Notes: generated by a model from the sequence alone, not told the origin. DNA of 37,560 bases from Thermoplasmatota archaeon (GCA_029762535.1 JARVGK010000029.1:1-37560); one strand, 5' to 3'; counted from the stretch's first letter, positions 489 through 23,009 are shown. Numbers and translations are program-made.

Positions 489-1949
489 TCAGTCCCGTCG
501 GATCGACCGGATCAACCTCTCGTTCTTATCATATATGTTGGCGATAAGGGGCATGGATCCTGGCATGGAGTGGGTGGCACAGCCGAAGCAGGGATCATAG
601 GCGCGGAAGGCCATCTCGACCATGTTGAGGAGGCCGTCGTTGACCTCACCCTTCTTGATCAGGCCTTTGGCGGCGTCCCTCACGGACATGGTTATGGCTC
701 CTGCGTTGTTCGTTGTTGCGACGATCAGGTTCGCGGTCTTTATCAGGCCCTGCTCGTCCACGTCGTAGTGGTGGATCAGGGTTCCCCTGGCCGCCTCGAT
801 CACGCCGAAACCTTCTCCCGGCTCTCCCACGGGGTTCTTGATATGCGTCGATGTGATCTCCTCGTCCGTAGCGAGTTCCAGGGCCCTCTCCGCTGCGTAA
901 AGGAGCTCTATCAGTCTAGCCCAGTGGAAGGCAAGCGTCGAATGTACGGGCCTTCCGCCCAGGGTCGAGTAGAACCTCTCGAACTCCTTCTGGGCAAGGG
1001 GGGTGGCCATTCCTTCGGCGGCGTTCAGTCTGCCGAGAGGTCCCACCCGGTAGAATCCCGATCCTGCTCCGTCCGTGAAACCGCTATATCCCACCCTCTT
1101 GAGGTAGGGGAATTTCATGTAGCTCCATTTCTCCACCCTTTCGGCGATCTCCTTCTGATAATCTTCGACCGGGAACTTGATGAGTTCCCCCCCGGAGGGA
1201 TCCGTGACCCGGATAAGACCGTCGTAGAAGTTCAGCTTATCATTTTCATCCACAAGTCCCATGTTGTATGTCTTGAGCTGATACGGTCCCTTGGTGATCA
1301 GTTCGACATAATCCTTGTTCTTCAGGACGATGTCCTCGAAGAGCTGGAGGGAGAATTTGGCGAACTCCCGGGAGGATCCCGCCATCATCTCGATCTCTTT
1401 TCTCTCATCCTCGTTCAGTCCTTTGGAGACGCCTCCGGGCAGCCCGTTGACGGGATGTGTCGCTTTTCCCCCGAGGATCGCCGTGATCCTCTGTCCGTAA
1501 GCGCGGTGCTTGATCACTTCCTTTCCGATCTCCAGCCCCGCCTTCTCGATCACTCCCAGTATGTTCCTCTTTCCCGGGGGAGCATCCGGGCCCACGACGA
1601 AGTCAGGCCCTCCCAAAAAATAAAAATGGAGTATGTGGTCGTATATGATGTAGCCGCAGTACATCAGTTCCCTCAGCTTCTTCGCGGCGGAGGGGGGATC
1701 CACCTTGAAGGCCGAGTCGAGCGCCTTCGCCGCGGCAAAATGGTGCGCAACGGGGCACACACCACAGATCCGGGATGTGATCTGGGGCATATCTTCCGCT
1801 CTGCGCCCCTGGGCGAACTTCTCGAACCCTCTCAGCTCGGGGATCTGAAGATATGCGTTATCGACATCCCCCGCATCGTCGAGGAATATGTTGATCTTGC
1901 CGTGGCCTTCAAGCCTTGTTATGGGATCGATCACTATTGATGTAGTCAT
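489..1949 (-). CDS. mvhA: [NiFe]-hydrogenase group 3c large subunit (Hdr-linked, F420-non-reducing)
   Basis: True start MTTSIVIDPITRLEGHG at 1949 (ATGA overlap with mvhG stop). L1 motif RICGVCPVAH, L2 motif DPCFGCATH, plus a cleavable C-terminal extension. Confidence 0.95.
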   Translation of the reverse strand: MTTSIVIDPITRLEGHGKINIFLDDAGDVDNAYLQIPELRGFEKFAQGRRAEDMPQITSRICGVCPVAHHFAAAKALDSAFKVDPPSAAKKLRELMYCGYIIYDHILHFYFLGGPDFVVGPDAPPGKRNILGVIEKAGLEIGKEVIKHRAYGQRITAILGGKATHPVNGLPGGVSKGLNEDERKEIEMMAGSSREFAKFSLQLFEDIVLKNKDYVELITKGPYQLKTYNMGLVDENDKLNFYDGLIRVTDPSGGELIKFPVEDYQKEIAERVEKWSYMKFPYLKRVGYSGFTDGAGSGFYRVGPLGRLNAAEGMATPLAQKEFERFYSTLGGRPVHSTLAFHWARLIELLYAAERALELATDEEITSTHIKNPVGEPGEGFGVIEAARGTLIHHYDVDEQGLIKTANLIVATTNNAGAITMSVRDAAKGLIKKGEVNDGLLNMVEMAFRAYDPCFGCATHSMPGSMPLIANIYDKNERLIRSIRRD

Positions 1950-2926
1950 GGGATGACCCTCCTTTTGATAAGAGCAGAGGGAAGACCGTACTTGTAGAAT
2001 GTCCCTACAGGGTCCACCACCCCGTCGAGGAGCTTCTCCAGATCCTCGTCGGTCAGCGTTTCCTCGTCCTCGATCCCCAGGATCGAAGCGAGAGCCGAGA
2101 TCATCTTGCCTCCCTGATCGAGGGAGTTGGGCGTAGGCCCCCCGCAACCGGTGCAGGGCATGTAAGCATCCATGCACGGACCTCCGCACCCTCCGCGGGT
2201 GGCGGGCCCCATGCAGAGGATCCCCTGCTCGAGAAGACATTTGTCATCGACCTTCTCCACTTCGTAGATCCTCCTGACCTTTGCGATCCTCTTCTCGGAG
2301 CGCTCGAACCTGCACTCGTCGCATACGGATTTGGCCGGAGCTATCACCGACCCTTTAGGAGGGAGATCCCCTTTGATGATGGCACCGACAGCTTGCAGGA
2401 TCAATTTCGTAGGGGGTGGACATCCGGGTAGATAATAATCGACATCAACTGTCTGGTCCAGGGTCTTCACCGTGTCGAAGAACACCGGGATGGTCAATTC
2501 ACCCTCTTTCACCTCGCTTGAGGGCTCGGGTTCGACCCCCTCGGGGTTCTCAATGGAGGCGTTCTCGTGATAGACGGTCTCGAACACGCCTTTCTTATTG
2601 GACAGGTTCGCAAGCCCGGGGATCCCGCCGGTGGCCGCGCAGGATCCGAAGGCCACCAGCACCTTGGACTTCTTCCTCAACAGGTGCGCCAGATGCTCCT
2701 GCTCGGAATTTCTTATCGCGCCGTTGAAGAAGCAGACGTCGATATGGCCGTCCGGCATCTCCTCGACGTCCTTGTACTTGGTATCGATGGCCACAGGCCA
2801 GAACAATATGTCCGCCGCCCCCGCGACGGTCAGGATCGCCTCATCTATGTCAAGGACCGCGATCTCGCATCCGCCGCAGCTTGCCGCCCAGTAGAAGGCG
2901 AACTTCAATTTCTCGGTCACTGGCAT
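1946..2926 (-). CDS. mvhG: [NiFe]-hydrogenase group 3c small subunit
   Basis: YWAASCGGCE, FGSCAATGGIPGL, LPGCPP, CDEC, CLLEQGILCMGPATRGGC...PCTGCGGP. Confidence 0.95.
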   Translation of the reverse strand: MPVTEKLKFAFYWAASCGGCEIAVLDIDEAILTVAGAADILFWPVAIDTKYKDVEEMPDGHIDVCFFNGAIRNSEQEHLAHLLRKKSKVLVAFGSCAATGGIPGLANLSNKKGVFETVYHENASIENPEGVEPEPSSEVKEGELTIPVFFDTVKTLDQTVDVDYYLPGCPPPTKLILQAVGAIIKGDLPPKGSVIAPAKSVCDECRFERSEKRIAKVRRIYEVEKVDDKCLLEQGILCMGPATRGGCGGPCMDAYMPCTGCGGPTPNSLDQGGKMISALASILGIEDEETLTDEDLEKLLDGVVDPVGTFYKYGLPSALIKRRVIP

Positions 2927-3336
2927 TCCCCCTTGAGAGGATTGGGACCCAGTTCCTTGAGGGTCTGTACGAACTCGGTCACCACATCAGCGAACTTCTG
3001 TCCCTCGGAAGCGGATATGTAATCGAAGCGGACCCTGCGGGGATCCATGTTGAGGTCCTTCAAGAGCCTCTGGATCAATTTCATCTTTCGGTTTGTCTTG
3101 TAATTGCCCGACTGGTAGTGGCAGTCACCGGGATGGCACCCGGCCACGAGCACTCCGTCTATGCCCTCCTTGAGCGCATCCAGGACGAAGACTGGATCCA
3201 CCCTTCCGGAGCACATCACCCTGATCGATCTCACGTTGGGAGGATACTTCAAACGACTCGTCCCGGCGAGGTCCGCTCCGGCATATGAGCACCAGTTGCA
3301 CAGGAACGCTACCACAACGGGTTCAAAATCCGACAT
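2917..3336 (-). CDS. mvhD: MvhD/FlpD [2Fe-2S] adaptor subunit (copy next to hydrogenase)
   Basis: FLCNWCSYAGADLAG, RVMCSGRVDP, GCHPGDCHY, ISASEG. Start at 3336 (TGATG overlap with hdrA stop). Confidence 0.95.
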   Translation of the reverse strand: MSDFEPVVVAFLCNWCSYAGADLAGTSRLKYPPNVRSIRVMCSGRVDPVFVLDALKEGIDGVLVAGCHPGDCHYQSGNYKTNRKMKLIQRLLKDLNMDPRRVRFDYISASEGQKFADVVTEFVQTLKELGPNPLKGECQ

Positions 3337-6300
3337 CACTCCCCACCCCCCGGAGAGCAAGTGCTGAGGGCCTTGATCATGGCCAGGATCTGATCGTCCT
3401 TGAAGCCTCTTTGGCTTATTGCACCCGAGGGACATGCCGCCACGCATGTTCCGCACCCCTGGCAAAGGCCCTCGTTGACCCTGGCGTGCACGACCTCAAA
3501 GCCGTCCTTGACCTCGATTACCGAATCTATGGCTGTGTAGGGGCAAAGAGAGATGCAGGTCTTGCATCCGGAACAGAGGTCCTCATCGACGACGGCGATG
3601 TTGGGCTCCGCCTCCAGGGTGGAGTTCGCAAGGATCGTCGCCGCCCTCGCGGCCGCCGCCTGGGCCTGGTATATGGCCTCTCCCAAAAACTTCGGAAGGT
3701 GGCAGCTACCCGCAAGGAATACCCCTCTCGTGGAGAAGTCCACAGGACGCAGTTTCACGTGCGCCTCCAAAAAGAATCCGTCCTGGTTCAGCGGTACCTT
3801 GAGCATCTTCGCCAGATGGTCGTTCCCGGGATCGGGGACCATGCCCGATGATAATACGAGGTGGTCCGCCTGGATGGGGATATCCTCCCCCATGAGGGGG
3901 TCGTTCACTTTTACGAGGATGCGATCCCCCAACTTGACGCTGGGCATCCTCTCGGGAACATACTGGAGGAATACCACACCCTGCTCCCGCGCCTTCTTGT
4001 AAAATCTTTCCCAGAAACCGTATGTCATCAGGTCGCGGTAGAGTATGTATACCTCAGCGTGGGGGTTGATATCCTTGATCCTGATGGCGTTCTTCAAGGC
4101 CCCCATGCAGCAGGTCCTGGAGCAGTATTCCCTCCCCTCCTGCCTGGACTCGACGCACTGCAGGAATACGAACGTCTCCCCGTCGGAGATCCCTCCGGGG
4201 GGCGTCTTTGACAAATCTTCCTCCATCCGGGACTGGGTGACGATCCGGGGGTCCGATCCGTACCCGAATGTCGTGGGAACGTGCTCGTCCGCGCCGACAG
4301 TGATGATGATGGCCCCAACCTTCTCTTTCACGGGTCCATCGGGGGTCTCGATGGTGGCCTCGTAATTGCCGACATATCCGGACAGGTCCATGAGCGTGGA
4401 CCCGGTCATGACCTTCAGGTTGGGATTCATTTCGATCCTTCCGATCAGGTCCTTGAGCATATCTGCGGGTTCGATCCCCTCGACCGTGAATCGCAGGTCG
4501 TTTAGCCTTCCGCCGAGGCGGTCCTTCTTCTCAACAAGTAGCGTTTCGTAACCCTGGTCAGACAGGGACAGGGCGGCGACCATACCTGCGGCCCCGCCTC
4601 CTATCACGAGCGCTTTCTGGGTGACATCGACCTTCAATACCGGGATCGACTCGAGCATACGGGATTTCGCCACTGTCATGGAAATGAGGTCCCTCGCCTT
4701 ATCCGTGGCGAGACCCTTGTCCGAATGGACCCAGGAACAGTGCTCCCTGATATTGGTCATCTCAAGGAGATGGGGGTTCAATCCCGCCTCAGAGAGGCTC
4801 TTCTTGAACAGAGGTTCATGTGTTCTGGGAGTGCACGCGGCGACTATTACGCGGTTGAGCCTGTTCTCCTTAATGACGGAGGCGATCTTCTTCTGTGTGT
4901 CCTCGGAGCAGGTATACATGTTCTCGTCGGCATAGACGACGTTCTTTAGCCCACGGGCGTACTCCACGACCGAGGGGACGTCCACCTGATTGCCTATATT
5001 GATCCCGCAGTGGCAGACGAAGATCCCGATCCTCGGGTCCTCAGTGCTTACATCTCTCTCCGGGTACTCCTTCCTTGGGGTCGCAAGCGTCCCCCTTGCC
5101 TCCCTCAGGAGCGCTGCTGCGGAGGCGGCCGCGGCAGAGGCCTGCATGACCGCCTCCGGGATCGCCTGGGGCTCCATGAAGCTCCCGGCCATGAATATGC
5201 CTGGTCTCACCAGGGCGACAGGGTCCTTCTGATGGGACAAAGCGAAGCCGTACTCGTTGACATCCAGGCCCAGGTCCCTGAGGGCCTTCGTTCGGCCCTC
5301 GTTCATGCACAATCCGATGGAGAGTACGACCATGTCGTACGTCTCCTCGTGCAGGTCGCCGTTCTCGTCCTCGTATCTTATCAGAAGGTCGCCGTTCTCT
5401 TTCAACTCGTCGATCTCGGAGATCCTCGAGCGGACGTAACGGATCCCGTGTTCTACCTTCGCCCTCTCTATGTAGCGGTCGAAGTCCTTTCCGTAGGAGC
5501 GCACATCGATGTAGAATATGGTCGGTTCTATGGTCTTCTCGTGCTCCTTGGCTATGACCGCCTCCTTGGCGGTGTACATGCAGCACATGGCGGAGCAGTA
5601 CTCGTGGTCCACGGTCCGGTCCCTGGACCCGACGCACTGGACCCATGCTATCCTCTTCGGGCCTGCACCGTCCCCCGGCCTCTTGATATGCCCCTGGTAG
5701 GGTCCCGAGGCCGAGAGTATCCTCTCGAACTCGAGGCTGGTGACGACGTTTCGGTATCTCCCGTAGCCGAATTCCCTCTTCACCGAAGGGTCGAAAGGCT
5801 GGGCCCCCATGGCGAGAATGACCGCCCCGACATCGAGCTCGATATCCTCGTGTTTCTGGTCATGGTTAACGGCCCCGGGCTTGCAGGCTTTGACGCAGGC
5901 CATGCAGTTTATGCATCCCTTGTATCCCGGAGAGCCCTCCTTGTCGATCACGAAGGCGTTGGGGATCGCCTGGGGATACGCCTTGTAGGCGGCCTTCCTC
6001 ATGGAGAGCCCCCCCTCGAACTCGTTGGGGAGCTTTATGGGGCAGACCCTCTCGCACTCCCCGCAGGAGGTGCATTTCTCGATGTCCACGTATCTGGCCT
6101 TTTTATGAACGGATACCTTGAAATTGCCGGGTTCCCCACTCACCCCCGTCACCTCGGATAGGGACATGATCTCGATGTTGGGGTGCCTCGAGGCATCGAC
6201 CAGTTTCGGGGAGAGTATGCACATGGAGCAGTCATTGGTGGGGAAGGTCTTGTCAAGCTGGGCCATGATCCCGCCTATGGACGGGCCTTTCTCTATGAGG

Positions 6301-6401
6301 TACACCTTGAATCCCATGTCCGCAAGGTCCAGGGAGGACTGCACTCCCGCAATGCCCCCTCCGACGACAGCTACTGCACCTATGATCCCTTTATCGGACA
6401 T
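3336..6401 (-). CDS. hdrA: Double-module heterodisulfide reductase subunit A-like flavoprotein (1021 aa)
   Basis: Two FAD Rossmann motifs (VVGGGIAG; VIGGGAAG), LDKTFPTNDC, two CVxSR...YCSxxCCM..K motifs, an internal CHCG domain, and inserted and C-terminal 2x[4Fe-4S] ferredoxin motifs. Confidence 0.92.
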   Translation of the reverse strand: MSDKGIIGAVAVVGGGIAGVQSSLDLADMGFKVYLIEKGPSIGGIMAQLDKTFPTNDCSMCILSPKLVDASRHPNIEIMSLSEVTGVSGEPGNFKVSVHKKARYVDIEKCTSCGECERVCPIKLPNEFEGGLSMRKAAYKAYPQAIPNAFVIDKEGSPGYKGCINCMACVKACKPGAVNHDQKHEDIELDVGAVILAMGAQPFDPSVKREFGYGRYRNVVTSLEFERILSASGPYQGHIKRPGDGAGPKRIAWVQCVGSRDRTVDHEYCSAMCCMYTAKEAVIAKEHEKTIEPTIFYIDVRSYGKDFDRYIERAKVEHGIRYVRSRISEIDELKENGDLLIRYEDENGDLHEETYDMVVLSIGLCMNEGRTKALRDLGLDVNEYGFALSHQKDPVALVRPGIFMAGSFMEPQAIPEAVMQASAAAASAAALLREARGTLATPRKEYPERDVSTEDPRIGIFVCHCGINIGNQVDVPSVVEYARGLKNVVYADENMYTCSEDTQKKIASVIKENRLNRVIVAACTPRTHEPLFKKSLSEAGLNPHLLEMTNIREHCSWVHSDKGLATDKARDLISMTVAKSRMLESIPVLKVDVTQKALVIGGGAAGMVAALSLSDQGYETLLVEKKDRLGGRLNDLRFTVEGIEPADMLKDLIGRIEMNPNLKVMTGSTLMDLSGYVGNYEATIETPDGPVKEKVGAIIITVGADEHVPTTFGYGSDPRIVTQSRMEEDLSKTPPGGISDGETFVFLQCVESRQEGREYCSRTCCMGALKNAIRIKDINPHAEVYILYRDLMTYGFWERFYKKAREQGVVFLQYVPERMPSVKLGDRILVKVNDPLMGEDIPIQADHLVLSSGMVPDPGNDHLAKMLKVPLNQDGFFLEAHVKLRPVDFSTRGVFLAGSCHLPKFLGEAIYQAQAAAARAATILANSTLEAEPNIAVVDEDLCSGCKTCISLCPYTAIDSVIEVKDGFEVVHARVNEGLCQGCGTCVAACPSGAISQRGFKDDQILAMIKALSTCSPGGGE

Positions 6402-6405
6402 CTTT

Positions 6406-7092
6406 TCACTTCCTCGTGTATCCTTCCTTTATGGCGAGCTCGCGGATGGCGTACATCAACTGCGGTATCTTTACCCCTTGAGGGCACTCGTCGAGACATC
6501 TGAAATGGGTGGAGCAGATCTCCACGAACCTGTTGTCGAACACCCTGTCCTTCATGCCGAGAAGGGTCCCCCTTATGACCTTCCTGGGGGAATAGAGTGG
6601 GTCCAGGTCCCTCTCCGGGCAGCCAGCGGTGCAGGTCCCGCAGGCAAAGCAGCTGTATATGTCACGCCCGGCATCGGTCTCGGCGAGCCTGTACTTGAGA
6701 GAGGGGTCCATGCCCGATGCCCTCTTCGTGCCGGTCAGGTCCTCCTCTAGCTCCTCCTTGAGCCTCTCCTCCCGTATCTGGTTCATCAAGCCCTTGACGT
6801 TGACCTTCTGGGGGCATTTCTCGAGGCATGTGTAATGCGAGGAGCATATCCATACGAACTCAGATGAGAGGACCTCCTCCCTCAGACCAAGTAAGGCCTT
6901 GCGGATAATGGTGCGGGGGTTCCACTCCTCATGGACCTCCTGCTCCGGACATCTAGCCGTGCAGGAACCGCAGGCGAAGCATTTCAAAATGCCCTCCCCT
7001 CCCTCGATCCCGGCTATCTCGAACTTTAATTGTGGGTCAAGATCCCTGGAATCGATGCCGTTCATCTGAGGGTCCCCCTCGTCTCCGTTCAC
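6406..7092 (-). CDS. Tandem-duplicated HdrC-like Fe-S protein (start may be 7065)
   Basis: Two repeats, each with CFACGxCTAxCP and a second motif CSSHYTCLEKCP / CSTHFRCLDECP. Confidence 0.85.
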   Translation of the reverse strand: MNGDEGDPQMNGIDSRDLDPQLKFEIAGIEGGEGILKCFACGSCTARCPEQEVHEEWNPRTIIRKALLGLREEVLSSEFVWICSSHYTCLEKCPQKVNVKGLMNQIREERLKEELEEDLTGTKRASGMDPSLKYRLAETDAGRDIYSCFACGTCTAGCPERDLDPLYSPRKVIRGTLLGMKDRVFDNRFVEICSTHFRCLDECPQGVKIPQLMYAIRELAIKEGYTRK

Positions 7093-8199: not shown

Positions 8200-8210
8200 T
8201 TCCTCACCTC

Positions 8211-8636
8211 CTACACGTCCCACCTCGCCCTCATGGGGTTGGGTCCAAGCTTCTTCGTCTCATCCACTATCTCCTTCACTGTATCGGCGAACCTCTGCCC
8301 CTCGGAGGCGGAGATCCATCTGACCCAGATCCTCTCCGGCTCCATGCCTAAGGTGGTGAGTATGTTCTTCAAAAGGACCATTCGCCTCCTGGCCTTGTAA
8401 TTGCCGTTGAGATAATGGCAGTCCCCCAGATGGCAGCCGCCGATCAGAACAGCGTCGGCCCCTTCGAGTATCGCCCTGTTCACATACATCGAATCGACCG
8501 AACCGGAGCACATTACCCTTATGACCCTGATGTTGGGGGGATATTGTATCCTTGATGTCCCTGCAAGGTCAGCTCCGGCATACGAACACCAGTTGCACAG
8601 GAACCCGACCACCCTTGGCTCGAAATCTTCCGTCAT
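8211..8636 (-). CDS. mvhD: MvhD/FlpD [2Fe-2S] adaptor subunit (copy next to FdhB-like gene)
   Basis: FLCNWCSYAGADLAG, RVMCSG, GCHLGDCHY, WISASEG. Confidence 0.95.
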   Translation of the reverse strand: MTEDFEPRVVGFLCNWCSYAGADLAGTSRIQYPPNIRVIRVMCSGSVDSMYVNRAILEGADAVLIGGCHLGDCHYLNGNYKARRRMVLLKNILTTLGMEPERIWVRWISASEGQRFADTVKEIVDETKKLGPNPMRARWDV

Positions 8637-8647
8637 TTGATATCACC

Positions 8648-11600: not shown

Positions 11601-13165
11601 GCGAATATGATGATGTCGCACGGGATGTCAAAAGCGGAACCCTCGATGGGGATGGGCTTCTTCCTCCCGCTCGGGTCCGGCTCGCCCAATTCCATCCTCT
11701 CACAGGTGAGGCATGTCTGGCATGCGTTCTCCACTACCTCGAGGGGCGAGGTGAGTATCTCTATGCCTATGCCCTCCTCTCTGGCCTGCTGCACCTCCTC
11801 GAGATGGGCGGGCATCTCCTCCTCGGTCCTGCGGTAGATGACCGAGACATCGGCGCCGAGCCTCTTCGCGGACCTTGCGCAGTCCATAGCGACGTTGCCG
11901 CCGCCGACCACGAGTACCCTCTTCGAGGCCAGTTCGTTCTCCTTGGCGAGGTCCGAATTCACCTTTTTCAGGAACTCTATGCCCTGCATGACGCAGTCCG
12001 GGCTGCAGCTGTTCACGGGTATGTCCTTGGCCTTCCATGAGCCGATGGCCGCGACGAAGGCCTCGAAGCCCTCGGAGGTGAGTCCTTCGAAGGTGACCTC
12101 CTTTCCGAGCCTTTTACCATACCTTATCTCGATATCGTTCTCCTTCAAAAGGAGGTCTATCTCCTTCTGCAGGTGATCGTTGGGGAGCCTGTAGCCGGGC
12201 ACCCCGAATCTCATCATTCCTCCCGCCTTATCCTGGGCTTCGAATATGGTGACGGAATAGCCCATTCTCGAGAGGTCGCTGGCAGCGGTCAATCCGGCGG
12301 GGCCTGAACCGATAACGGCCACCTTCCTTTTGCCCCCTCTCTCCTTCGGCTCCTGCCGGCCTTCCACCTTTGACAGGTTCTCGAGGCGATCCAGGGTGGC
12401 TTTTTCGACCTCATCCCAATGATCATATGCCCAATCCGCTATGAATCGCCTTATCCTGCATATCGATATGGGCTCCTCGATATCCTTCCTGTTACACTCG
12501 GTCTCGCAGGGATGATAGCATATCCTCCCCATTGAACCGGGAAGTGGAACGCTCTCTTTGATGAGCAGGTAGGCCTCGGCGAACCTCTCCTGGGAAGCCA
12601 GGGCCACGAAGGCATGGGCGTTGAGCCCCGCCGGGCAGGCGATCCTGCACGGCGATCTCTCCCCATCCTTGTCTATGGCGAAGATGTTCGGGATCGCCTG
12701 CGGGAAGGGCTGGAATATCGCATGCCTCTGGCCAAGCCCTTCGTCGAACTCGGAGGGCATCAGGACGGGGCAGTGCTCCACGCAGTCGCCGCAGCCGTTG
12801 CATTTCTCCATGTCCACGTATCTCGGGCGCCTCTTTATGGTCACCTGGAAGTTCCCCACATCTCCTTTTACCGAGCCGATGTCCGCGTTGGTGATGATCT
12901 CGATGTTGCGGTGCCTGCCGGTATAGACGAGCTTGGGGGCGAGAATGCACATGGAGCAGTCGTTCGTCGGGAACGTCTTGTCGAGCTTGGTCATGGTCCC
13001 GCCTATCGAGAGCCCGCTGTCCAAGAGATAGACCTTGAACCCGGCATCTGCCAGGTCCAGTGAGGACTGTATGCCCGATATGCCCCCTCCGACGACGAGG
13101 ACCGATCCCTGGACATCGCCGGAGGCGGTCGGAGCAGATGCGTCGATCCCTTTTTCCGACATCAT
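8648..13165 (-). CDS. hdrA: HdrL-type giant HdrA (~1505 aa): two HdrA modules with an inserted GltD/NfnL-like NAD(P)H oxidoreductase domain
   Basis: Start MMSEKG at 13165 (ATGA overlap). VVGGGISG, LDKTFPTNDC. Insert has PCRIACP...GRICYHPCETECNR, IGSGPAG, GGGNVAMD, YRR, EAKRCLNC. Then YCSSVCCMYAIK, CHCG, VIGGGIAG, YCSRICCSNALK and a C-terminal ferredoxin. Confidence 0.92.
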   Translation of the reverse strand: MMSEKGIDASAPTASGDVQGSVLVVGGGISGIQSSLDLADAGFKVYLLDSGLSIGGTMTKLDKTFPTNDCSMCILAPKLVYTGRHRNIEIITNADIGSVKGDVGNFQVTIKRRPRYVDMEKCNGCGDCVEHCPVLMPSEFDEGLGQRHAIFQPFPQAIPNIFAIDKDGERSPCRIACPAGLNAHAFVALASQERFAEAYLLIKESVPLPGSMGRICYHPCETECNRKDIEEPISICRIRRFIADWAYDHWDEVEKATLDRLENLSKVEGRQEPKERGGKRKVAVIGSGPAGLTAASDLSRMGYSVTIFEAQDKAGGMMRFGVPGYRLPNDHLQKEIDLLLKENDIEIRYGKRLGKEVTFEGLTSEGFEAFVAAIGSWKAKDIPVNSCSPDCVMQGIEFLKKVNSDLAKENELASKRVLVVGGGNVAMDCARSAKRLGADVSVIYRRTEEEMPAHLEEVQQAREEGIGIEILTSPLEVVENACQTCLTCERMELGEPDPSGRKKPIPIEGSAFDIPCDIIIFATGQEIDPAGLEKSGLKFSKGAIDCDPVTLRTSLEKVFSAGDAVTGPASAVEAIGAGHEAAISVDRFLNGEDLIEGREKAEEKGAPIPDSTMRARTPRRIPQAIDMEKRTSTFSEIESTYTLMEAVEEAKRCLNCSGCCDCMQCVEHCQRGAVDHEMEEVEQTLNVGAVILSPGFDNYRPRKGGSLGYGLYPNVLTSIEFERMLSASGPYKGHVKRLSDGEEPKRIAWLQCVGSRDESCDHKYCSSVCCMYAIKEAVIAKEHVPGLETHVYFMDMRSFGKDFDRYYERAQSEYGVVFRRSRIPRIEQDRATKNLKVRYIDEDGNVRTDEYDMIVLSIGLQPCSTMEDLAKAFEINLNEYGFMETDPFVPVETGRPGIYASGSASEPKDIPESVTQASAAAAAVAGDIFGARNTQVTEKEYPRERDVGNEFPRTGVFICHCGINISGVIDVRKVVDHARGLPFVAYADDETFTCSADSLERMKERIIELGLNRIVVASCTPRTHEPLFQDTLREAGLNPHLFEMVNLRDQNSWVHRNYPEMATSKAIESVNMGVAKVNELRSVSHHRIPVINEALVIGGGIAGMNAALSIADQGFKVHLLEREMELGGHMKEIFLGASDEDPQLYLRDTEEAVRDHPNIDLRLGSELEDISGYVGNFTSRIRKGDAVDVVQHGVVVVATGANPYEPKEYLYGSDERIMRQRDLERDIHKGAPYLEDLKEVVMIQCVGSRNDEHPYCSRICCSNALKNAIHLKELNPAVNVYVLYRDIRTYGFREDSLYARARALGVLFLHFEEGREPNVSLEDGSLNVQTRDHVLLRDMTLHPDRLVLSTGIVPKENSTLAQKLKVPLNADGFFSEAHMKLRPVDFSGDGIFLAGTAHSPRFIEEAVLQGKASASRASTIISREYLETKGNVAKVISRSCAGCQLCLQICPYDAIDFDEDKKVVIVNEILCQGCGACAAICPSGTSQQSSFTKKQIISMIDACLD

Positions 13166-15120
13166 ACCACCTCGTCTATCATCCTTACAAGCTGCCGTTT
13201 GGTGTAGTTCTTGTGCGTGCATGCGTTCGAGGGGCAAGAGGATACGCATGCGCCGCAGCCGGCGCATAGGGCCTCGTCAACCTCCGCGATCCCTGTTACA
13301 TCGTTGATGTTCCTGGCGGAGTAGGCGCAGACCTCGACGCATACGCCGCAGCCCACGCATACCTCGGGATCCACCCATGCGATCAGCGGCTCGTTCTCAA
13401 GCTCCTCCTTGGACAATATCCCGACGGCCCTGGAGGCCGCGCCGCAGGCCTGCGATACGGTATCGGATATGTCCTTCGGGCCCTGGGCGCAGCCGGCTAT
13501 GAACGTGCCGTTGACGAAGGTGTCCATGGGGCGCAGCTTGGGATGTGCCTCGAGTAGGAAACCGTCGGAGCTCCTCGAGAGCTTGAAGGTCCTGGCGAGT
13601 TCCTGGGAGTCGGAGCGGGGGACCAGTGCCGGGACGAGCACGACCATGTCAGACCTTATCTCGAAGAGCTTGTCGGTGGTGGTGTCGAATATGTCGATGA
13701 GGAACCCCTCCTTCTTGACCCTGACCTCCGACGGGCGTCCCCTGAAGAAGTTCGTGTTCTTCGACCTTATGTTGCGGTAGAACTCCTCGTAGCCCTTGCC
13801 GAAGGACCTGATGTCGGTGTAGCAGATGTTGATCTCAACTTCCTCACCGAGCTTCTCCCTGAGAAGGTAGACGTGTTTGAGGGCGGACATGCATCCTATC
13901 CTGCAGCACCAGGAGCATTGGGTCTCGTCCCGGGACCCGACGCAGAGTATGAAGGTGACGGAGGTCGGATGCTTCCCTGACGACGGAAGGACGACCTCGC
14001 CGTGGGTCGGGCCGGAGGAGCTTATCAACCTCTCCAACTGCATTGTCGTGATGACGTCGGGGGACCTTCCGTAACCGTATTCGAACATTCTATTGGCCTC
14101 AAGGAGATCGTATCCGGTGGCGATGACCACCGCCCCCACGTTGAGTTCCAATGTCTCGTCCTTCTGGGAGAAGTCGATGGCGCCCGGCTCGCACGCCTTG
14201 ACGCACAGGGGGCCGTCCCCGCACCTGCCGAAACGGAGCATGAGGCAGCTGTTCGGGTCTATGGTGCTTTTGAGGGGGACGGCCTGGGGGAACGGGATGT
14301 AGCAGGCGGAGCGCTTGCCCATTCCCATGTTGAACTCGTCAACGACCCTTCCGGCGAGCCTGCATGCGCTGGCGCATTCGTTGCAGCCGGTGCACTTGTC
14401 GATATCGACGTATCTGGCCTTCTTCCTCACCTTCACCTTGTAGTTGCCGATGGAACCCTCTATCGATTCGACCTCCGCATAGGTGAGGAGGTCCACGTTG
14501 GGGTGGTGATAGACCTCCATCATCTTGGGGGTGAGTATGCAGGAGGAGCAGTCAAGTGTGGGGAATGTCTTGTCCAGCTGGGCCATCCTTCCGCCGACGG
14601 TCGGCTCCTTCTCGACGAGATGGACCTTGAACCCCGAATCGGCGATGTTGAGGGCTGCCTGGATCCCAGCGATGCCTCCGCCGACAACGAGCGCTTCCGG
14701 CGTGACGGGCGTTCTGGAGGCCTCCAGCGGCTCGAGGAGAGCCGCCTTGGACACCGCCGAGCGGACCAACGCCTTGGCCTTCTGCGTGGCCTCTGCGGGG
14801 TCCTCGTGGGCCCAGGAGCACTGCTCCCTTATATTGGTTATCTCCACGGTGAAGGGGTTGAGGCCTCCGTCCTTCGCCACCCCGCGGAAGGTGTGCTCGT
14901 GCATCCTGGGTGAACACGAGGCTATGACGATCCCGTCCAGATCGAACTCCTTTATGGAGTCCTTGATGAGGTTCGCGCCCGGGTCCGAGCACATGTACTT
15001 GTAGTCCTTGGAAATTACGACCCCTGGCAGCTTCGAGGCGTATTCGGCGACCTCCACGACGTCCACCTTCGATGCTATGTTCAAACCGCAGTGGCAGACG
15101 AAGACGCCAATTTTGTTCAT
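13162..15120 (-). CDS. hdrA: Heterodisulfide reductase subunit A, canonical size (652 aa)
   Basis: Start MNKIGVFVCHCG at 15120 (TGATG overlap with hdrB). YMCS, SCSPRMHE, REQCSW, VVGGGIAG, LDKTFPTLDC, HPKLRP, GCAQGPKDI, two ferredoxin domains. Confidence 0.95.
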   Translation of the reverse strand: MNKIGVFVCHCGLNIASKVDVVEVAEYASKLPGVVISKDYKYMCSDPGANLIKDSIKEFDLDGIVIASCSPRMHEHTFRGVAKDGGLNPFTVEITNIREQCSWAHEDPAEATQKAKALVRSAVSKAALLEPLEASRTPVTPEALVVGGGIAGIQAALNIADSGFKVHLVEKEPTVGGRMAQLDKTFPTLDCSSCILTPKMMEVYHHPNVDLLTYAEVESIEGSIGNYKVKVRKKARYVDIDKCTGCNECASACRLAGRVVDEFNMGMGKRSACYIPFPQAVPLKSTIDPNSCLMLRFGRCGDGPLCVKACEPGAIDFSQKDETLELNVGAVVIATGYDLLEANRMFEYGYGRSPDVITTMQLERLISSSGPTHGEVVLPSSGKHPTSVTFILCVGSRDETQCSWCCRIGCMSALKHVYLLREKLGEEVEINICYTDIRSFGKGYEEFYRNIRSKNTNFFRGRPSEVRVKKEGFLIDIFDTTTDKLFEIRSDMVVLVPALVPRSDSQELARTFKLSRSSDGFLLEAHPKLRPMDTFVNGTFIAGCAQGPKDISDTVSQACGAASRAVGILSKEELENEPLIAWVDPEVCVGCGVCVEVCAYSARNINDVTGIAEVDEALCAGCGACVSSCPSNACTHKNYTKRQLVRMIDEVV

Positions 15121-15998
15121 CAGGCCCCCTCCTTGTCCTTTTGAAGGAGGCGCTCCACCGGGCTCTGGTTGAGATCGAGCCCCAGCTCCCCGGGGGGGAT
15201 CCCGAATGCGAGCCCCATCAGCTGGGTGAGATATACGACGGGCACCTCGAGCTTGGCGCCGACCGTCTCCCCCGCCTTCTTCTGTTTGGAGTCGTACATC
15301 TTGTGGCACCAGGGGCATGCAAGGACCATACCGTCGAACCCCTGCTCCTGCACGGCCTGCAGTTTCTGCCCGGTCTTTGTCACTGCCGTATCAGGATGGA
15401 CCGGCAGTACGGGTCCTCCGCAGCAGTCAAGCTTCTCGGCGTAATCGTTGGAACGGGCCCCGATCGCCTCGAGTATCCTCTCCATCTTCTGCGGGTTCTC
15501 GGCATCGACCGGGCGCCCGAGTTCCGTCGGGCGAATGATATGGCACCCGTAATGGGTGGCCATGTCCGGGGATCCAAGATCGACCTTTACCATATCTTTC
15601 ACCTTTTCCAGCCCTATGTGGTCGTGAACGAGATCGATCGTATGGTACAGAGCCACGCTCCCGTCGTAATCGAGCCCCTCGGCCGACAGCTTCTCATTGA
15701 GCCTGCGGGCCATATCCTCCTCCTCTTTGACGATCCTGTTCGCCTCGCTCAAGGCGAGGTGGCACATGGGGCAGGGGACCAGCGCGTCCAGCCCCTCCTT
15801 CTTAAAGACCGCTAGGGATCTTGTGGAGAGGGTGAGGGTAAGCATCTGGTTGATGCTCTTCAGGGGCTCGCCGCAGCATGAGAGGTCCATGACATCGACG
15901 ATCTCCACACCGAGCATTGGCAGGACCTTCCTCAAGGAGATCTCGTATCCGTACTGCTCGGTGGGCATCAGGCATCCGGGAAAAAGTCCAAGCCTCAT
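15120..15998 (-). CDS. hdrB: Heterodisulfide reductase subunit B (two CCG domains)
   Basis: Start MRLGLFPGC at 15998 after GGAGGGGTGA. SCCG...CPMC and HYGCH...CCGG...CPWC non-cubane cluster motifs. Confidence 0.93.
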   Translation of the reverse strand: MRLGLFPGCLMPTEQYGYEISLRKVLPMLGVEIVDVMDLSCCGEPLKSINQMLTLTLSTRSLAVFKKEGLDALVPCPMCHLALSEANRIVKEEEDMARRLNEKLSAEGLDYDGSVALYHTIDLVHDHIGLEKVKDMVKVDLGSPDMATHYGCHIIRPTELGRPVDAENPQKMERILEAIGARSNDYAEKLDCCGGPVLPVHPDTAVTKTGQKLQAVQEQGFDGMVLACPWCHKMYDSKQKKAGETVGAKLEVPVVYLTQLMGLAFGIPPGELGLDLNQSPVERLLQKDKEGA

Positions 15999-16009
15999 CT
16001 CACCCCTCC

Positions 16010-16537
16010 TCAGACCTTCTCCATGGCCACGGTCATCACGGTCATCTGGAACTTCGCCGGGTCCGTCGGGACGGATATCGGGGGGAGGCACAATCCCTCC
16101 CTCGTCCTGGTCTCCCCGCCCCTTGTGGTGACCGTCTGGACGTCCTGGATCAGGCCCATTCCCATGGCCGAGGTCAGCATCGCCGTGTAGTCTCCCGGGA
16201 CCTCCTTGCCGGAGGCGACTGCAAGGTTCTTCAGCGCGAAGAGTATGTTCACAGGGGCCACTTTCTGAGGGCATCGCTCCTTGCACTTAAAGCAGCTGAG
16301 GCAGGTCCATATTATATCCGAATTGACCATCTCCTGGACGAGCCCTCTCTTCAAGAGGGCAACGATCCGGTGCGGCTCGAGCTCTAGGAGCTTGTGTGCC
16401 TCGCATCCCGCGGTGCATTTCGCGCATTGGTAGCAGTAGTAAGAGGCCTCTTCCCTCAGGCGCAGCAGACGCTCGTTGAGTTCCCTTCTCGCCTCTGTCT
16501 CCACCTCCGCCATGGAGGTCAAATCGGTGATGCCCAT
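16010..16537 (-). CDS. hdrC: Heterodisulfide reductase subunit C
   Basis: CYQCAKCTAGC and IWTCLSCFKCKERCP, directly upstream of hdrB. Confidence 0.92.
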   Translation of the reverse strand: MGITDLTSMAEVETEARRELNERLLRLREEASYYCYQCAKCTAGCEAHKLLELEPHRIVALLKRGLVQEMVNSDIIWTCLSCFKCKERCPQKVAPVNILFALKNLAVASGKEVPGDYTAMLTSAMGMGLIQDVQTVTTRGGETRTREGLCLPPISVPTDPAKFQMTVMTVAMEKV

Positions 16538-16582
16538 TCGGATCGCTCCAGGATGTTGCTGTGACGGTTAAAGCGGTTGTGG

Positions 16583-17536
16583 TCATGCCTTTTCGTTAAT
16601 GGCCTGGACCAGCTTCGGTATTACGGTGTACAGGTCCCCCACTATTCCGTAGTCGACCACCTTGAAGATGGGGGCGTTCTCGTCCTTGTTTATGGCGACT
16701 ATGATCCCGGAGTCCCTCATTCCGGCCACGTGCTGGATCTGACCGGATATGCCACATGCGACATAGAGCTTCGGCTTCACCTTGTGACCGGATAATCCGA
16801 TCCAATGGTCCTCGGAAAGCCATTTCAGGTCGGCCGCGATCGGCCTAGAGCACCCCAGGGTGTAACCTTTCAAGGATTTGGCCAGGTCCTCGATGAGCTT
16901 GAGGTCCTGGCTGCTCTTGAAGCCCCTGCCGCACGAGACGATTATCTGCGCGTCCTCGACGTTCGCGCCCTCTGAGACCATGCTCTCGACCTTGAGGATC
17001 TTCGATCCGTACTCTCTGGGGGCTATGTCCTTCGTGACGATCTCTCCTCCCCTCGAGTCGTCCGGTGGAAGGGGATCGTAGGTCTTTGCCTGCACGGTGA
17101 CGATCGCGGGTTTGGACGCGAACCTCTCCGTTGCGACGCCGTTCCCGGAATAGACGATCCTCTCGGTGACGATCGAGCCGTCCCTGACGTAGAGCTTCCT
17201 CGAATCAGTGGATAGGCCTGCGTCAAGAAGGGATGCGAGCCTGGGAGCGATCTCCTTTCCCGTCTTGGTCGAACCGATCATGATGAGCGGGGGATCCACC
17301 TCTTTGCATATGGAGTGGAGTATCTCGGATCCCTCCTCGGCCTTGATCTCGTCCATGTCCTGTCCCGCCAGATACACCACCGAGGCCCCGGCGGCCACAA
17401 GCTTCCTGGCCTTTTCCTGGCCGTCCCGGCCGAGGACCACCGCCGATGGCTTGGAACCCAGTTCCCTGGATATCTCAACCGCTTTAGCAAGCATCTCTAT
17501 TGCTATCTTTTCGTTATCGGAGAATACAAAAACCAT
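16583..17536 (-). CDS. etfA: Electron transfer flavoprotein alpha subunit
   Basis: IIVSCGRG, GCSRP, IGLSGHKVKPKLYVACGISGQIQHVAGM, AINKDENAPIF. Confidence 0.96.
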   Translation of the reverse strand: MVFVFSDNEKIAIEMLAKAVEISRELGSKPSAVVLGRDGQEKARKLVAAGASVVYLAGQDMDEIKAEEGSEILHSICKEVDPPLIMIGSTKTGKEIAPRLASLLDAGLSTDSRKLYVRDGSIVTERIVYSGNGVATERFASKPAIVTVQAKTYDPLPPDDSRGGEIVTKDIAPREYGSKILKVESMVSEGANVEDAQIIVSCGRGFKSSQDLKLIEDLAKSLKGYTLGCSRPIAADLKWLSEDHWIGLSGHKVKPKLYVACGISGQIQHVAGMRDSGIIVAINKDENAPIFKVVDYGIVGDLYTVIPKLVQAINEKA

Positions 17537-17540
17537 CTTA

Positions 17541-18305
17541 TCACCCCAGCGCTCCGTCCTTCGATAGGTTCTCGGCCAGGTCCTTCACTGCCTGGTCCAG
17601 GTCGTCCTTGAATATCAAGTTCTTCCTGTTCATCGCAAGGCCCTTGACGTCCTCCAGAACGACCTTGGGGGCCAGGTCAGGAACGTTCATGTCCGGGGCC
17701 TTGAGGACCTTGATGGGCTTGGCCGCGGACCCGAGTATCTGCATTAGGCTGGGCAGCCTCGGGACGTTGATCTCCTTGGTCACTGTGAGGAGGACGGGGT
17801 ATGTGGATTCGGACACCACCCTCTTATCGCCCATGTTCCTCTCCGCCGTTATCTTTTCGGCTTCGGCATCTATCTTGAAGGCGTAGCTAAGCTGGGGTAT
17901 GTCCATCGCCCCGGCGATCCTGGGCCCCATCTGGCCCGAGAACATGTCTATGGACGCCTCGCCGCAGAGCACGAGGTCCACCTGACCCATGTCCTTTATC
18001 GCCTTCGCGATCAGATTGGAGATGACGTGATAGTCGGCACCTTCCGGTGGAACGATCAGCACAGCGTCGTCGGCGCCCATGGCGAGGATCTCCTTGATCC
18101 TCTCACGTGCGTCCTCGGACCCGACGGTTATCACCGTCACCTTTCCCTTGAGCTTCTCCTTGATCCTTATGGCCTCCTCGGCCGCGTTCTTGTCTATGTC
18201 GCTGATCTTCTTGGGGATCCCCTCAAGGACCGGCTTCCCGGTGGAAGGGTTCACCTTGATCTCGCCCACATCGACGACCTGTTTCGCACAAACCACTATG
18301 TTCAA
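17541..18305 (-). CDS. etfB: Electron transfer flavoprotein beta subunit (TTG start)
   Basis: NIVVCAKQV, AAEEAIRIKE, LAMGADDA, DLVLCGEASID..SGQMGP, NVPRLPSL. Confidence 0.95.
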   Translation of the reverse strand: MNIVVCAKQVVDVGEIKVNPSTGKPVLEGIPKKISDIDKNAAEEAIRIKEKLKGKVTVITVGSEDARERIKEILAMGADDAVLIVPPEGADYHVISNLIAKAIKDMGQVDLVLCGEASIDMFSGQMGPRIAGAMDIPQLSYAFKIDAEAEKITAERNMGDKRVVSESTYPVLLTVTKEINVPRLPSLMQILGSAAKPIKVLKAPDMNVPDLAPKVVLEDVKGLAMNRKNLIFKDDLDQAVKDLAENLSKDGALG

Positions 18306-18321
18306 TCCATCAACTCCCTTT

Positions 18322-19461
18322 TCATCTCAGCAGGCTGCCCGAGATCACCATCTTCATGACCTCCGACGTGCCTTCGTAAATGCCCGTGATCCTGGCGTCG
18401 CGGTAAAGCCTCTCGACCGGGTACTCCCTCGTGTATCCGTACCCTCCGAATATCTGTATCGCCTTGTCCGTGGCGTCCACCGCCGTTTGTGCCGAGTAGA
18501 GCTTGGCCATCGCGGCCTCCTTGGAGAACCTCTTCCCCTGGTCCTTCATGTAGGCGGCGTTCATGACAAGGAAGCGCGCGGCCTCTATTCTGGTCGCCAT
18601 ATCAGCGATCATCCACTGTATCGCCTGGAAGCTCGATATCGGCTTTCCGAACTGATGCCTCTGCTTGGAATAGGCTACCGATTCCTCCAGGGCGGCCTGG
18701 GCAATGCCGACGGCCTGGGCGGCGATCCCGATCCTGCCCCCGTCCAGGGTGGACAGGGCGATCTTGAAGCCCTCCCCCTCCTTCCCCAGGAGGTTCTCCT
18801 TGGGGACCTCCATGTCCTCGAATATTAGCTCGGAGGTCATGGACGCGTTGATGCCTATCTTCTCGAATATGGAGCCGACCTTGTATCCCTTGAAATCGCT
18901 CTCTATGATGAAGGCGCTTATGCCTTTGGGGCCCTTTTCCCTGTCCGTGACGGCGAAAGCGATTATTATCCCCGCCTTCGGACCGCTCGTTATGAAAGTC
19001 TTTGTCCCGTTGAGGATGTAATGATCGCCCTTGAGCTCAGCCGTTGATTTCATGGCACCAAGGTCCGAACCCGCGTCAGGCTCGGTCCCGCCGAAAGCGC
19101 CTATCTTCTCGCCCCTGGCGAGGATCGGCAGGTATTTCGCCTTCTGCTCCTCGGTTCCGTATTGGATGATGGGCCAGGCGGTCAGGGAGTTGTGTACTGA
19201 TGTGACGACTCCGGTGGATGCGCATGCCCTGGAGATCTCCTCGATTATAGTGGCATACGTCACATGGTCAAGTCCCGGTCCCCCGTATTCCGCGGGTATG
19301 ATGGCGCCGAGGATCCCGAGCTCGGCCATCTTCTTCAATATCTCGTGGGGGTACTCCTCCTTTCGGTCCCTCTCGGCGGCACCGGGGGCGATCTCGCGTG
19401 CGGCGAACTCGCGGACCATGTTCCTGATCATGACCTGCTGTTCATTGAGCTCCAGAATCAT
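18322..19461 (-). CDS. Short/branched-chain acyl-CoA dehydrogenase, first gene of the Hdr operon
   Basis: Start MILELNEQQ at 19461. FGGTEPDAGSD, NGTKTFIT, LDGGRIGIAAQ, FGGYGY, IYEGTSE with catalytic Glu. Confidence 0.93.
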   Translation of the reverse strand: MILELNEQQVMIRNMVREFAAREIAPGAAERDRKEEYPHEILKKMAELGILGAIIPAEYGGPGLDHVTYATIIEEISRACASTGVVTSVHNSLTAWPIIQYGTEEQKAKYLPILARGEKIGAFGGTEPDAGSDLGAMKSTAELKGDHYILNGTKTFITSGPKAGIIIAFAVTDREKGPKGISAFIIESDFKGYKVGSIFEKIGINASMTSELIFEDMEVPKENLLGKEGEGFKIALSTLDGGRIGIAAQAVGIAQAALEESVAYSKQRHQFGKPISSFQAIQWMIADMATRIEAARFLVMNAAYMKDQGKRFSKEAAMAKLYSAQTAVDATDKAIQIFGGYGYTREYPVERLYRDARITGIYEGTSEVMKMVISGSLLR

Positions 19462-19484
19462 GGTCCGGGCCAAAGGGGTTACGA

Positions 19485-19500
19485 AAAATAAACCTTTCCG
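19485..19500 (-). promoter_or_regulatory. Archaeal BRE + TATA box for the ACAD-ETF-Hdr-Mvh operon (probably leaderless)
   Basis: Minus strand CGGAAAGG-TTTATTTT ending ~24 nt before the ATG at 19461, with no RBS upstream. Confidence 0.6.
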
Positions 19501-19714
19501 TGGGTCGTCTTTTAAAAATCGCGACATTGATGGAACGATGTTAATATGGGCTTTTATTTCGGTAACATTTCCCGACACAGGACGGTCGCGCTTATTATCC
19601 GGCCTATGTCATGGCCATGGGTCGTAAACGTTATAAACAACGTCCCCGCATAAAGATGATGCATATGGATGTCGAGGGGCCATGGTCCATCCTCGATCCA
19701 CAGGAGCTGTTCAT

Positions 19715-21307: not shown

Positions 21308-21322
21308 TCCACAGGTGTTCCA

Positions 21323-22999
<1,677 letters not shown>

Positions 23000-23009
23000 G
23001 GTGATGCCA

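Follow-up and report, generated by a model that had tools for sequence, protein, structure and literature searches.

The 37,560-nt contig JARVGK010000029.1 from a Thermoplasmatota archaeon (GCA_029762535.1), analysed here in its full length and called the window below, carries on its minus strand a run of 14 co-oriented genes (489–19461) in which an acyl-CoA dehydrogenase (ACAD) and both subunits of an electron-transferring flavoprotein (ETF) are joined to the subunits of a heterodisulfide reductase (Hdr) and of an Mvh-type [NiFe]-hydrogenase. We see about an even chance that this operon encodes a soluble bifurcating or confurcating system built on an MvhAGD-HdrABC core, with the ETF as its high-potential partner. 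Comparative genomics supports an ETF/enoyl-CoA couple that would feed or drain Hdr/Mvh. The initial annotation of the window had proposed this couple as the high-potential arm of an Hdr complex; the linkage of the genes, the presence of a single ETF and a single HdrB in the genome and the lack of any other ETF acceptor speak for it, while the catalytic cysteines of HdrB and the bifurcating-like character of the ETF speak against it.

Many groups of non-methanogenic archaea, among them Thermoplasmatota, Asgard and Bathyarchaeia, carry Hdr/Mvh genes, to which metabolic reconstructions usually assign an ‘unknown heterodisulfide’. The operon described here suggests that acyl-CoA chemistry may be coupled to ferredoxin and hydrogen without a membrane step, and is relevant to the way in which quinone-less strict anaerobes dispose of the high-potential electrons from acyl-CoA dehydrogenation. 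It offers a defined gene set for this problem, the minimal form of which comprises nine genes, acd-etfBA-hdrCBA-mvhDGA. All the parts are known; their combination and the implied substrate are uncharacterised. The arrangement is not known to have been characterised in archaea, and in line with this we found no paper describing an acd-etfBA-hdrCBA-mvhDGA operon in the literature searched. A study of Thermoplasmatota contains only the speculation that Hdr might handle β-oxidation electrons (PMC12220078).

Architecture of the operon

Families were assigned with Pfam and NCBIfam, and the 14 genes, all on the minus strand, belong to the families named in the initial annotation. The first encodes a short-chain-type, Bcd/AcrC-like ACAD of 379 aa (18322–19461; Pfam Acyl-CoA_dh_N/M/1), the best NCBIfam model of which is the AcrC acryloyl-CoA reductase with 515 bits, under the 640-bit cut-off. 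It is followed by EtfB (254 aa, 17541–18305; Pfam ETF, 2.7e-35; best PDB matches CarD 6FAH_B and 5OL2_B) and by EtfA (317 aa, 16583–17536; Pfam ETF and ETF_alpha; best PDB matches CarE 6FAH_A and 4KPU_A), which is devoid of an N-terminal ferredoxin domain. The Hdr core begins with HdrC (175 aa, 16010–16537), a protein with two [4Fe-4S] motifs recognized by Pfam Fer4_8/Fer4_17 and by the NCBIfam model TIGR03290 CoB_CoM_SS_C (2e-19), and continues with HdrB (292 aa, 15120–15998), which has two CCG domains (Pfam CCG twice; 5ODC_B, 5e-56), and a canonical HdrA (652 aa, 13162–15120; NCBIfam HdrA2/HdrA models). The latter matches the methanogen HdrA structures 8RVU_a and 5ODC_A over residues 3–649 (717 bits, E ~1e-214; 1.2e-214 for 8RVU_a) and is full-length, with the N-terminal domain, the thioredoxin-reductase-like FAD domain and the inserted and C-terminal ferredoxin domains all present.

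A cassette of further Hdr-related genes is inserted downstream of hdrA. It opens with an HdrL-type fusion of 1505 aa (8648–13165; Pfam Fer4_20, Pyr_redox_2 and FAD_oxidored), segments of which match HdrA, NfnB (5JCA_L, 4YLF_B) and GltD in the PDB. Its first module is an HdrA without the N-terminal domain, in which the inserted ferredoxin domain is split by an NfnB/GltD-like FAD/NAD(P)H insert: residues ~168–666 match NfnB, GltD and DPD subunits, and the flanks correspond to HdrA residues 136–291 and 285–510. The C-terminal part is a second, complete HdrA module. The first mvhD copy, which starts 11 nt downstream of hdrL (141 aa, 8211–8636; Pfam FlpD, 1e-52), is followed by a distant FrhB/FdhB-like iron-sulfur flavoprotein (368 aa, 7093–8199; a weak Pfam FrhB_FdhB_C match of 1.7e-8 and a Fer4 dicluster), a tandem HdrC-HdrC without an HdrB partner of its own (228 aa, 6406–7092; TIGR03290 in two stretches, 6e-38; Pfam Fer4_17/Fer4_8 twice) and an HdrA-HdrA tandem fusion (1021 aa, 3336–6401; 5ODC_A, 1.3e-219 in 3 stretches). 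The first module of this fusion likewise has no N-terminal domain, its residues 12–364 matching HdrA 148–495. The operon closes with the second MvhD copy (139 aa, 2917–3336; Pfam FlpD, 8e-57; NCBIfam VhuD), the [NiFe]-hydrogenase small subunit MvhG (326 aa, 1946–2926; Pfam Oxidored_q6; VhuG, 2.5e-61) and the group-3c-type large subunit MvhA (486 aa, 489–1949; Pfam NiFeSe_Hases; VhuA, 1.8e-124). Among the NCBIfam models these three proteins match VhuD, VhuG and VhuA best, yet with scores under the equivalog cut-offs. As had been supposed, a transmembrane subunit is missing: hydrophobic segments of the membrane type are absent from all 14 proteins, and the KD19 maxima (1.6–1.8) correspond to Rossmann strands.

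After refinement of the start codons, neighbouring genes are separated by −10 to +16 nt, i.e. overlaps of 1–10 nt or gaps of 0–16 nt, with the 45 nt between etfA and hdrC as the single exception; the original estimate of gaps mostly below 20 nt and a largest one of about 45 nt was accurate. Strong Shine–Dalgarno-like sequences (GGAGG/GGTGA) precede most of the genes and the composition is uniform across the region. Spacers and T-runs were inspected directly; bacterial promoter and terminator consensus sequences are inapplicable to archaea. No intergenic gap of the operon contains a run of five or more T residues, and a T-rich stretch is found 3′ of the mvhA stop codon. A separate promoter or terminator between etfA and hdrC, which according to the initial annotation would count against the proposed hub, was not found: the 45-nt spacer (16538–16582) contains neither a T-run nor a TATA-like box, and a GGAG motif is located 9 nt before the hdrC ATG. 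Judged by the archaeal consensus, the candidate promoter of the operon is the BRE/TATA-like sequence GAAAGGTTTATTTTT (19480–19505, minus strand), ~27 nt upstream of the ACAD ATG, where the initial annotation had also placed one.

Conservation and genomic context

The 14 proteins were compared with 80 loci (L numbers below) retrieved by EtfA from contigs of one genome per species, 62 of which were assessable in that they extend far enough downstream. With linkage defined as an hdrC that follows etfA in the same orientation at a distance of no more than 4 kb, 20 of the 62 loci are linked. Six more (L027, L031, L057, L036, L075 and L078) carry hdr or mvh within ~10 kb in divergent or convergent orientation, which brings the loci with hdr or mvh within ~10 kb of etf to 26/62. 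In a quick IQ-TREE phylogeny of EtfBA (SH-aLRT support; rooted at the midpoint solely for display) the ETF of the window falls within a 99%-supported clade of 17 members; all 15 assessable ones are hdr-linked and the other two are too short. On the whole tree the linked state requires at least 4–5 changes. The expectation that acd-etfBA would be found next to hdrCBA in relatives is thus confirmed, and in more than one arrangement.

The full order from etfB to mvhA is present on single contigs of three other metagenome-assembled genomes (MAGs), with 59–89% amino-acid identity and a split HdrL region, and because of this recurrence the gene arrangement is not an assembly artefact. The minimal form acd-etfBA-hdrCBA-mvhDGA, without the HdrL cassette, occurs at L009 and L013. 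Elsewhere the genes are joined in other ways: acd-etfBA-thiolase-3-hydroxyacyl-CoA dehydrogenase-crotonase-hdrCBA-mvhD at L058 and L066, and acd-ligase-etfBA-DUF6125-AbfD-like-hdrCBA-mvhDGA at L047. These independent arrangements tie hdrCBA-mvhD(GA) to crotonyl/butyryl-CoA genes. Unlinked relatives (L015, L017, L021, L023 and L052) have acd-acyl-CoA ligase-etfBA-DUF6125-HpaB/AbfD-like (4-hydroxybutyryl-CoA dehydratase family). Five genomes of unlinked relatives encode 2–20 CCG proteins each, outside this locus, and so offer no example of an ETF in a host devoid of HdrB/HdrD-type proteins, as would speak for a self-sufficient ETF.

HdrL is a single open reading frame (ORF) of 1503–1505 aa in the window, L001 and L007, and three ORFs (~310, 615 and 1080–1100 aa, in total ~500 aa longer) in the L003/L004/L014 lineage (L091–L093). 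The block hdrL-mvhD-frhB′-hdrCC-hdrAA is present in L007 and absent in its sister genome L009, and is therefore an accessory cassette and no fixed part of the core. Of the single 14-gene hub originally envisaged, the linkage of the core is upheld while the cassette as a constant component is not. Where the cassette does occur it is always placed between hdrA and mvhD, which suggests that MvhAG is shared with it.

The host is a non-methanogenic Thermoplasmatota MAG of 2.96 Mb in 102 contigs (93.4% complete, 1.1% contaminated), in which the window represents one whole contig of 37.6 kb (C24). The closest EtfA relatives are all from Thermoplasmatota MAGs of sediments and similar habitats (SG8-52-3, SM1-50, ex4484_6 and others). 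The operon EtfBA is the only ETF pair of the genome and, in a genome-wide CCG search, the operon HdrB its only CCG protein; all HdrA, HdrC, MvhD and FrhB-like genes of the genome are also located in the operon. In this 93.4%-complete genome we detected neither a second ETF nor a second CCG, HdrD or EMO-like protein (EMO/EtfD, or HdrF3, being the membrane ETF:(methyl)menaquinone oxidoreductases), and no Fer4_ETF_QO or FixC-type domain, although the same search was positive in the Thermotoga and Sulfolobus controls. A membrane ETF acceptor encoded elsewhere, which would have offered another outlet for these electrons, is thus not apparent, and ETF-QO is equally absent from the 12 linked relatives. 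In 10 of these 12 (11 of 13 linked genomes counting the host) the operon HdrB is the sole CCG protein. As for the methanogenic disulfide system, to which the initial annotation had drawn attention, the genome at this completeness has no mcrA (MCR_alpha) and no ComA; CoB synthesis was not searched for. The classical heterodisulfide would therefore be unavailable to the host.

Five ACADs are encoded in the genome, four of them on the window contig. A thl-hbd-crt cluster is located on contig C21, and a DUF6125 gene is paired with an AbfD-like one on C4 (C4:31673–33657). Besides the operon enzyme, the genome encodes three [NiFe] hydrogenases, a membrane enzyme of the Mbh/Mrp type (C29:25915–33475) and two NAD(P)-linked ones that are group-3b-like, or sulfhydrogenase-type (C29:13337–17313 and C102:12635–16661), so that its 3 Mb hold four in all. 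By gene content, ferredoxin and NAD(P)H have recognizable other routes to H2, whereas the ETF electrons have no recognizable partner except the adjoining Hdr proteins.

A possible ETF-linked Hdr/Mvh system and its alternatives

In its more specific form our proposal is that the high-potential partner is the ETF with the acyl-CoA/enoyl-CoA couple and no disulfide, and that the operon is a membrane-free H2:enoyl-CoA and ferredoxin bifurcase that also contains a second bifurcation module, for NAD(P)H, feeding the same node; we put this at somewhat less than an even chance. For the system as such, we infer the physical contacts, electron path, direction and stoichiometry as follows. The ETF and the acyl-CoA/enoyl-CoA couple would replace CoM-S-S-CoB as high-potential substrate, the acyl-CoA side being served by the co-encoded ACAD and the four further ACADs of the genome via the ETF. 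The ETF would bind HdrB through EtfB, much as bacterial EMO receives its ETF on an HdrB-like domain, and electrons would pass one at a time between it and the two non-cubane clusters of HdrB; these in turn would communicate through HdrC with the bifurcating FAD of HdrA. MvhAGD would link this flavin to H2 and the ferredoxin domains of HdrA would link it to ferredoxin, so that three branches meet at the HdrA flavin: ETF/ACADs at high, H2 via MvhAGD at intermediate and ferredoxin (Fd) at low potential. The forward reaction would read 2 H2 + enoyl-CoA + Fd(ox) → acyl-CoA + Fd(red) and, at low H2, the reverse acyl-CoA + Fd(red) → enoyl-CoA + 2 H2. The cassette would most plausibly serve as an NAD(P)H port, via the NfnB/GltD-like insert, to the same hydrogenase/ferredoxin node. 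The initial annotation had also considered F420H2 as a donor, entering via the FrhB-like subunit; this is unlikely given that the genome has no CofH above cut-off and no CofE for F420 synthesis, and that the FrhB_FdhB_C match is weak and partial. The operon nevertheless includes the FrhB/FdhB-like subunit (7093–8199), in a genome where neither CofH nor CofE was found.

There are precedents for the individual steps. In a cryo-EM structure of an EMO:ETF complex, EtfB attaches the ETF to the cytoplasmic part of EMO, which is HdrB/HdrC-like, and the FAD of the ETF lies 12–13 Å from the non-cubane clusters (bioRxiv 10.64898/2026.08.18.745454); EtfD is homologous to HdrBC (PMC13083937). That an Hdr core can also work with acceptors other than disulfides is illustrated by MetFV-HdrABC-MvhD (as described in PMC9012536). 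A prediction of the EtfA, EtfB and HdrB complex (13-row alignments each) scored 0.00 and gave no answer, so that it counts neither for nor against binding.

The potential of the crotonyl-CoA/butyryl-CoA couple is ~−10 mV, that of ferredoxin ~−450 to −500 mV and that of H+/H2 −414 mV at 1 atm. Calculated from these textbook potentials, the mean of the two outer couples, ~−240 mV, corresponds to the H2 couple at ~0.1–1 Pa, a level found in anoxic sediments, and the reaction could therefore run either way. Several ACADs on one ETF favour the oxidative direction, in which H2 is formed. A reduction of crotonyl-CoA is equally compatible with the clostridial-type thl-hbd-crt and the AbfD contexts. 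If the proposal is correct, the operon would represent a new class of acceptor or donor for flavin-based electron bifurcation, explain the energetics of fatty-acid and amino-acid fermentation in abundant sediment archaea and link the evolutionary history of heterodisulfide reductases to the history of the ETF oxidases (EMO/EtfD). Run in reverse, it would allow β-oxidation and the oxidation of amino-acid-derived acyl-CoA to release H2 at the cost of reduced ferredoxin, without quinone, cytochrome or proton-motive force.

A number of observations weigh against such a system. Both ETF subunits resemble the structurally characterized bifurcating ETFs more closely than the human and Paracoccus proteins: EtfB scores 127 (6FAH), 123 (5OL2), 117 (7QH2) and 106 bits (4KPU) against 86 bits for 1EFV, and EtfA 188–159 bits with bifurcating against 142 bits with non-bifurcating structures, the best-scoring ETFs being CarDE, the C. 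difficile Etf, LctBC and that of A. fermentans. Considering also the Bcd/AcrC-like nature of the operon ACAD, ACAD-ETF could be a self-sufficient NADH-dependent enzyme. In HdrB all 10 cysteines of the two non-cubane clusters align with those of 5ODC_B and are invariant or nearly so in an alignment of 13 clade members; the pattern is methanogen-type, and the substitutions typical of the electron-transferring EMO/EtfD domains, a His at the CoM site and a Gly or Thr for Cys at the distal cluster, are absent from the protein. With this full catalytic set, HdrB could have a real disulfide as substrate. The same ETF family is found without an adjacent hdr in 42 of the 62 loci. Finally, some linked relatives have a stretch of 490–730 nt without a convincing ORF between etfA and hdrC (L003:10952–11438, L010:4089–4812, L013:10955–11547 and L093:1935–2421), and a second promoter or regulatory RNA might be located there.

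Most of these points would be accommodated if the operon encoded separate enzymes, an autonomous ACAD-EtfBA of the Bcd/EtfAB type and an MvhADG-HdrABC that reduces a disulfide. The former would be NADH-dependent and possibly ferredoxin-reducing, or non-bifurcating like the NADH:enoyl-CoA reductase of Clostridium propionicum, and the two would be located together only because both help to balance Fd, NAD(P)H and H2 in one fermentation. The similarity of ETF and ACAD to components of the bifurcating Bcd/Car/Lct-Etf complexes, the cysteines of HdrB and the many relatives with no adjoining hdr are as expected on this explanation, and a Clostridium Bcd-EtfAB cluster does lie beside a hydrogenase without direct contact being claimed (bioRxiv 10.1101/2024.08.04.606487). 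However, we consider it a serious but rather unlikely explanation. Bifurcating ETFs possess a recognition motif for the bifurcating FAD (b-FAD), DGDTAQVGP, mutation of which abolishes b-FAD binding and confurcation (PMC9232219). At this position the operon EtfB has DMFSGQMGP, only 4/9 identical and with the second Asp replaced by Phe, and the motif IDMFSGQ(M/V)GP is invariant in the clade; EtfA in turn has ERIVYSGN where the aligned bifurcating structures have TRPAFGGN. By its sequence the ETF appears to descend from a group-2-like lineage, yet it has departed from the b-FAD motif and may therefore lack an NADH/bifurcation site of its own and need an outside partner. Moreover, no candidate disulfide system was found in the host (no mcrA, no ComA), the operon HdrB is the sole CCG protein in 11 of the 13 linked genomes, and the repeated independent re-linkage of hdrCBA-mvh with crotonyl-CoA genes exceeds what loose co-regulation would lead one to expect.

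A further possibility, clearly less probable than separate enzymes, is that the proteins act in one pathway without forming a stable supercomplex. The ETF would then be a diffusing shuttle that pays transient visits to the ACADs and to the HdrBC face, and the cassette a separate NAD(P)H-linked bifurcating enzyme that draws on the common ferredoxin pool, and perhaps also on the same hydrogenase, without touching the ETF. Complexes of non-bifurcating ETFs with their partners are indeed transient, and no ternary EMO:ETF:ACAD complex was seen (bioRxiv 10.64898/2026.08.18.745454); one ETF must here serve five ACADs. The cassette is found in L007 but not in its sister L009, its HdrL is split into three ORFs in the L091–L093 lineage, and fusions of the HdrA-HdrA and HdrA-NfnB kinds are known without an ETF from ANME-1 and bacteria (PMC9012536; PMC2702500). 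On the other hand, its constant position between hdrA and mvhD suggests a shared MvhAG. This explanation refines the ETF-linked system proposed above and is not its opposite. Adjacency through chance or assembly, devoid of functional meaning, has only the fact in its favour that MAG contigs can be chimeric, and is effectively refuted by the identical order in independent assemblies from different studies, by the overlapping start and stop codons with their Shine–Dalgarno-like sites and by the uniform composition. In addition, 26 of 62 loci with hdr or mvh in the vicinity of etf compare with a rough, uncomputed expectation of ~1–2% for a few hdr loci in a genome of 2–3 Mb.

Related systems and neighbouring features

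The closest counterpart of the core is the MvhAGD-HdrABC complex of hydrogenotrophic methanogens (5ODC, 8RVU), all six subunit types of which are present here with the order hdrCBA...mvhDGA kept. In contrast to the methanogens, the host has no mcrA or ComA, acd-etfBA is joined upstream in the same operon, and the stretch between hdrA and mvhD holds in addition two multi-HdrA proteins, a second MvhD, an FrhB-like subunit and a tandem HdrC. The EMO/EtfD proteins of syntrophs, sulfate reducers and mycobacteria resemble the operon in having an HdrC-like dicluster part and a double-CCG part encoded beside etfBA/ACAD; ETF docks there and its electrons are passed to non-cubane clusters. However, the corresponding parts are two separate soluble proteins in the operon, without haem b or a transmembrane domain, HdrB keeps the catalytic bridging cysteines, and the partner is HdrA plus a hydrogenase and not a quinone.

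With the Bcd-EtfAB, CarCDE and Ldh-EtfAB systems of Firmicutes the operon shares a Bcd/AcrC-like ACAD directly upstream of etfB-etfA and the best ETF structure scores, and relatives of the window embed thl-hbd-crt as do the clostridial bcs operons. It differs from them in the b-FAD motif and the EtfA segment described above, in the lack of a ferredoxin domain in EtfA and in running on into hdrCBA-mvh. Both cassette architectures are known in kind, from the HdrL of Desulfobacterium autotrophicum (PMC2702500) and from HdrA-NfnB and fused HdrA-HdrA of ANME-1 and Moorella (PMC9012536). The likeness extends to the NfnB/GltD-like module in the HdrA ferredoxin insert, the tandem HdrA with one copy lacking the N-terminal domain, the mvhD following each fusion and the FdhB/FrhB-like gene nearby. 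In the ANME fusions as described, though, the first module carries the N-terminal domain, while here the module without that domain comes first (PMC9012536), and the cassette forms part of an ETF/ACAD/Mvh operon whose host is an archaeon that is neither methanotrophic nor sulfate-reducing. The class II benzoyl-CoA reductase Bam(BC)2DEFGHI of Geobacter metallireducens is a tentative further counterpart; neither a tungsten BamB-like subunit nor a NuoEFG-like module is present here, and there is a hydrogenase in their place.

Two further observations concern ETF and HdrB in the linked relatives. At L058, where thl-hbd-crt lies between etfA and hdrC, the last Cys of the second CCG motif of HdrB (12519–13394) is replaced by Gly (CPWGQ compared with CPWCH), a change unique to this locus among the aligned clade members. 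In the Syntrophus EMO a Gly replaces a bridging cysteine at the other (C81-equivalent) site (bioRxiv 10.64898/2026.08.18.745454). The substitution at L058 hints that some ETF-linked HdrB proteins may drift towards a pure electron-transfer role. A second EtfA of ~396–447 aa is encoded elsewhere in six of the 12 linked genomes (G003, G004, G005, G012, G013 and G014); its length is that of an EtfA with N-terminal ferredoxin domain (CarE, LctC) and its ETF_alpha score is above that of the operon EtfA.

Outside the operon, the window contains an acyl-CoA island (20783–24343 and 28687–35052) with the large subunit and the B12-binding subunit of an acyl-CoA mutase, MeaB, three more ACADs and a class-III aminotransferase. 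One of these ACADs is 63% identical to that of the operon and another, of 548 aa, has a C-terminal extension. The island is served by the single ETF of the genome. It is interrupted on the minus strand (24350–28231) by the gene for a 1293-aa protein with DUF6259, CARDB, SpaA-like and CarboxypepD_reg repeats, which by its domains is probably a cell-surface protein. Lastly, among the retrieved loci, a contig of 4452 bp binned as Fibrobacterota (L053, JAUXBV010000376.1) carries a Thermoplasmatota-type etfB-etfA-hdrC with 53–65% identity and is probably a mis-binned archaeal contig.

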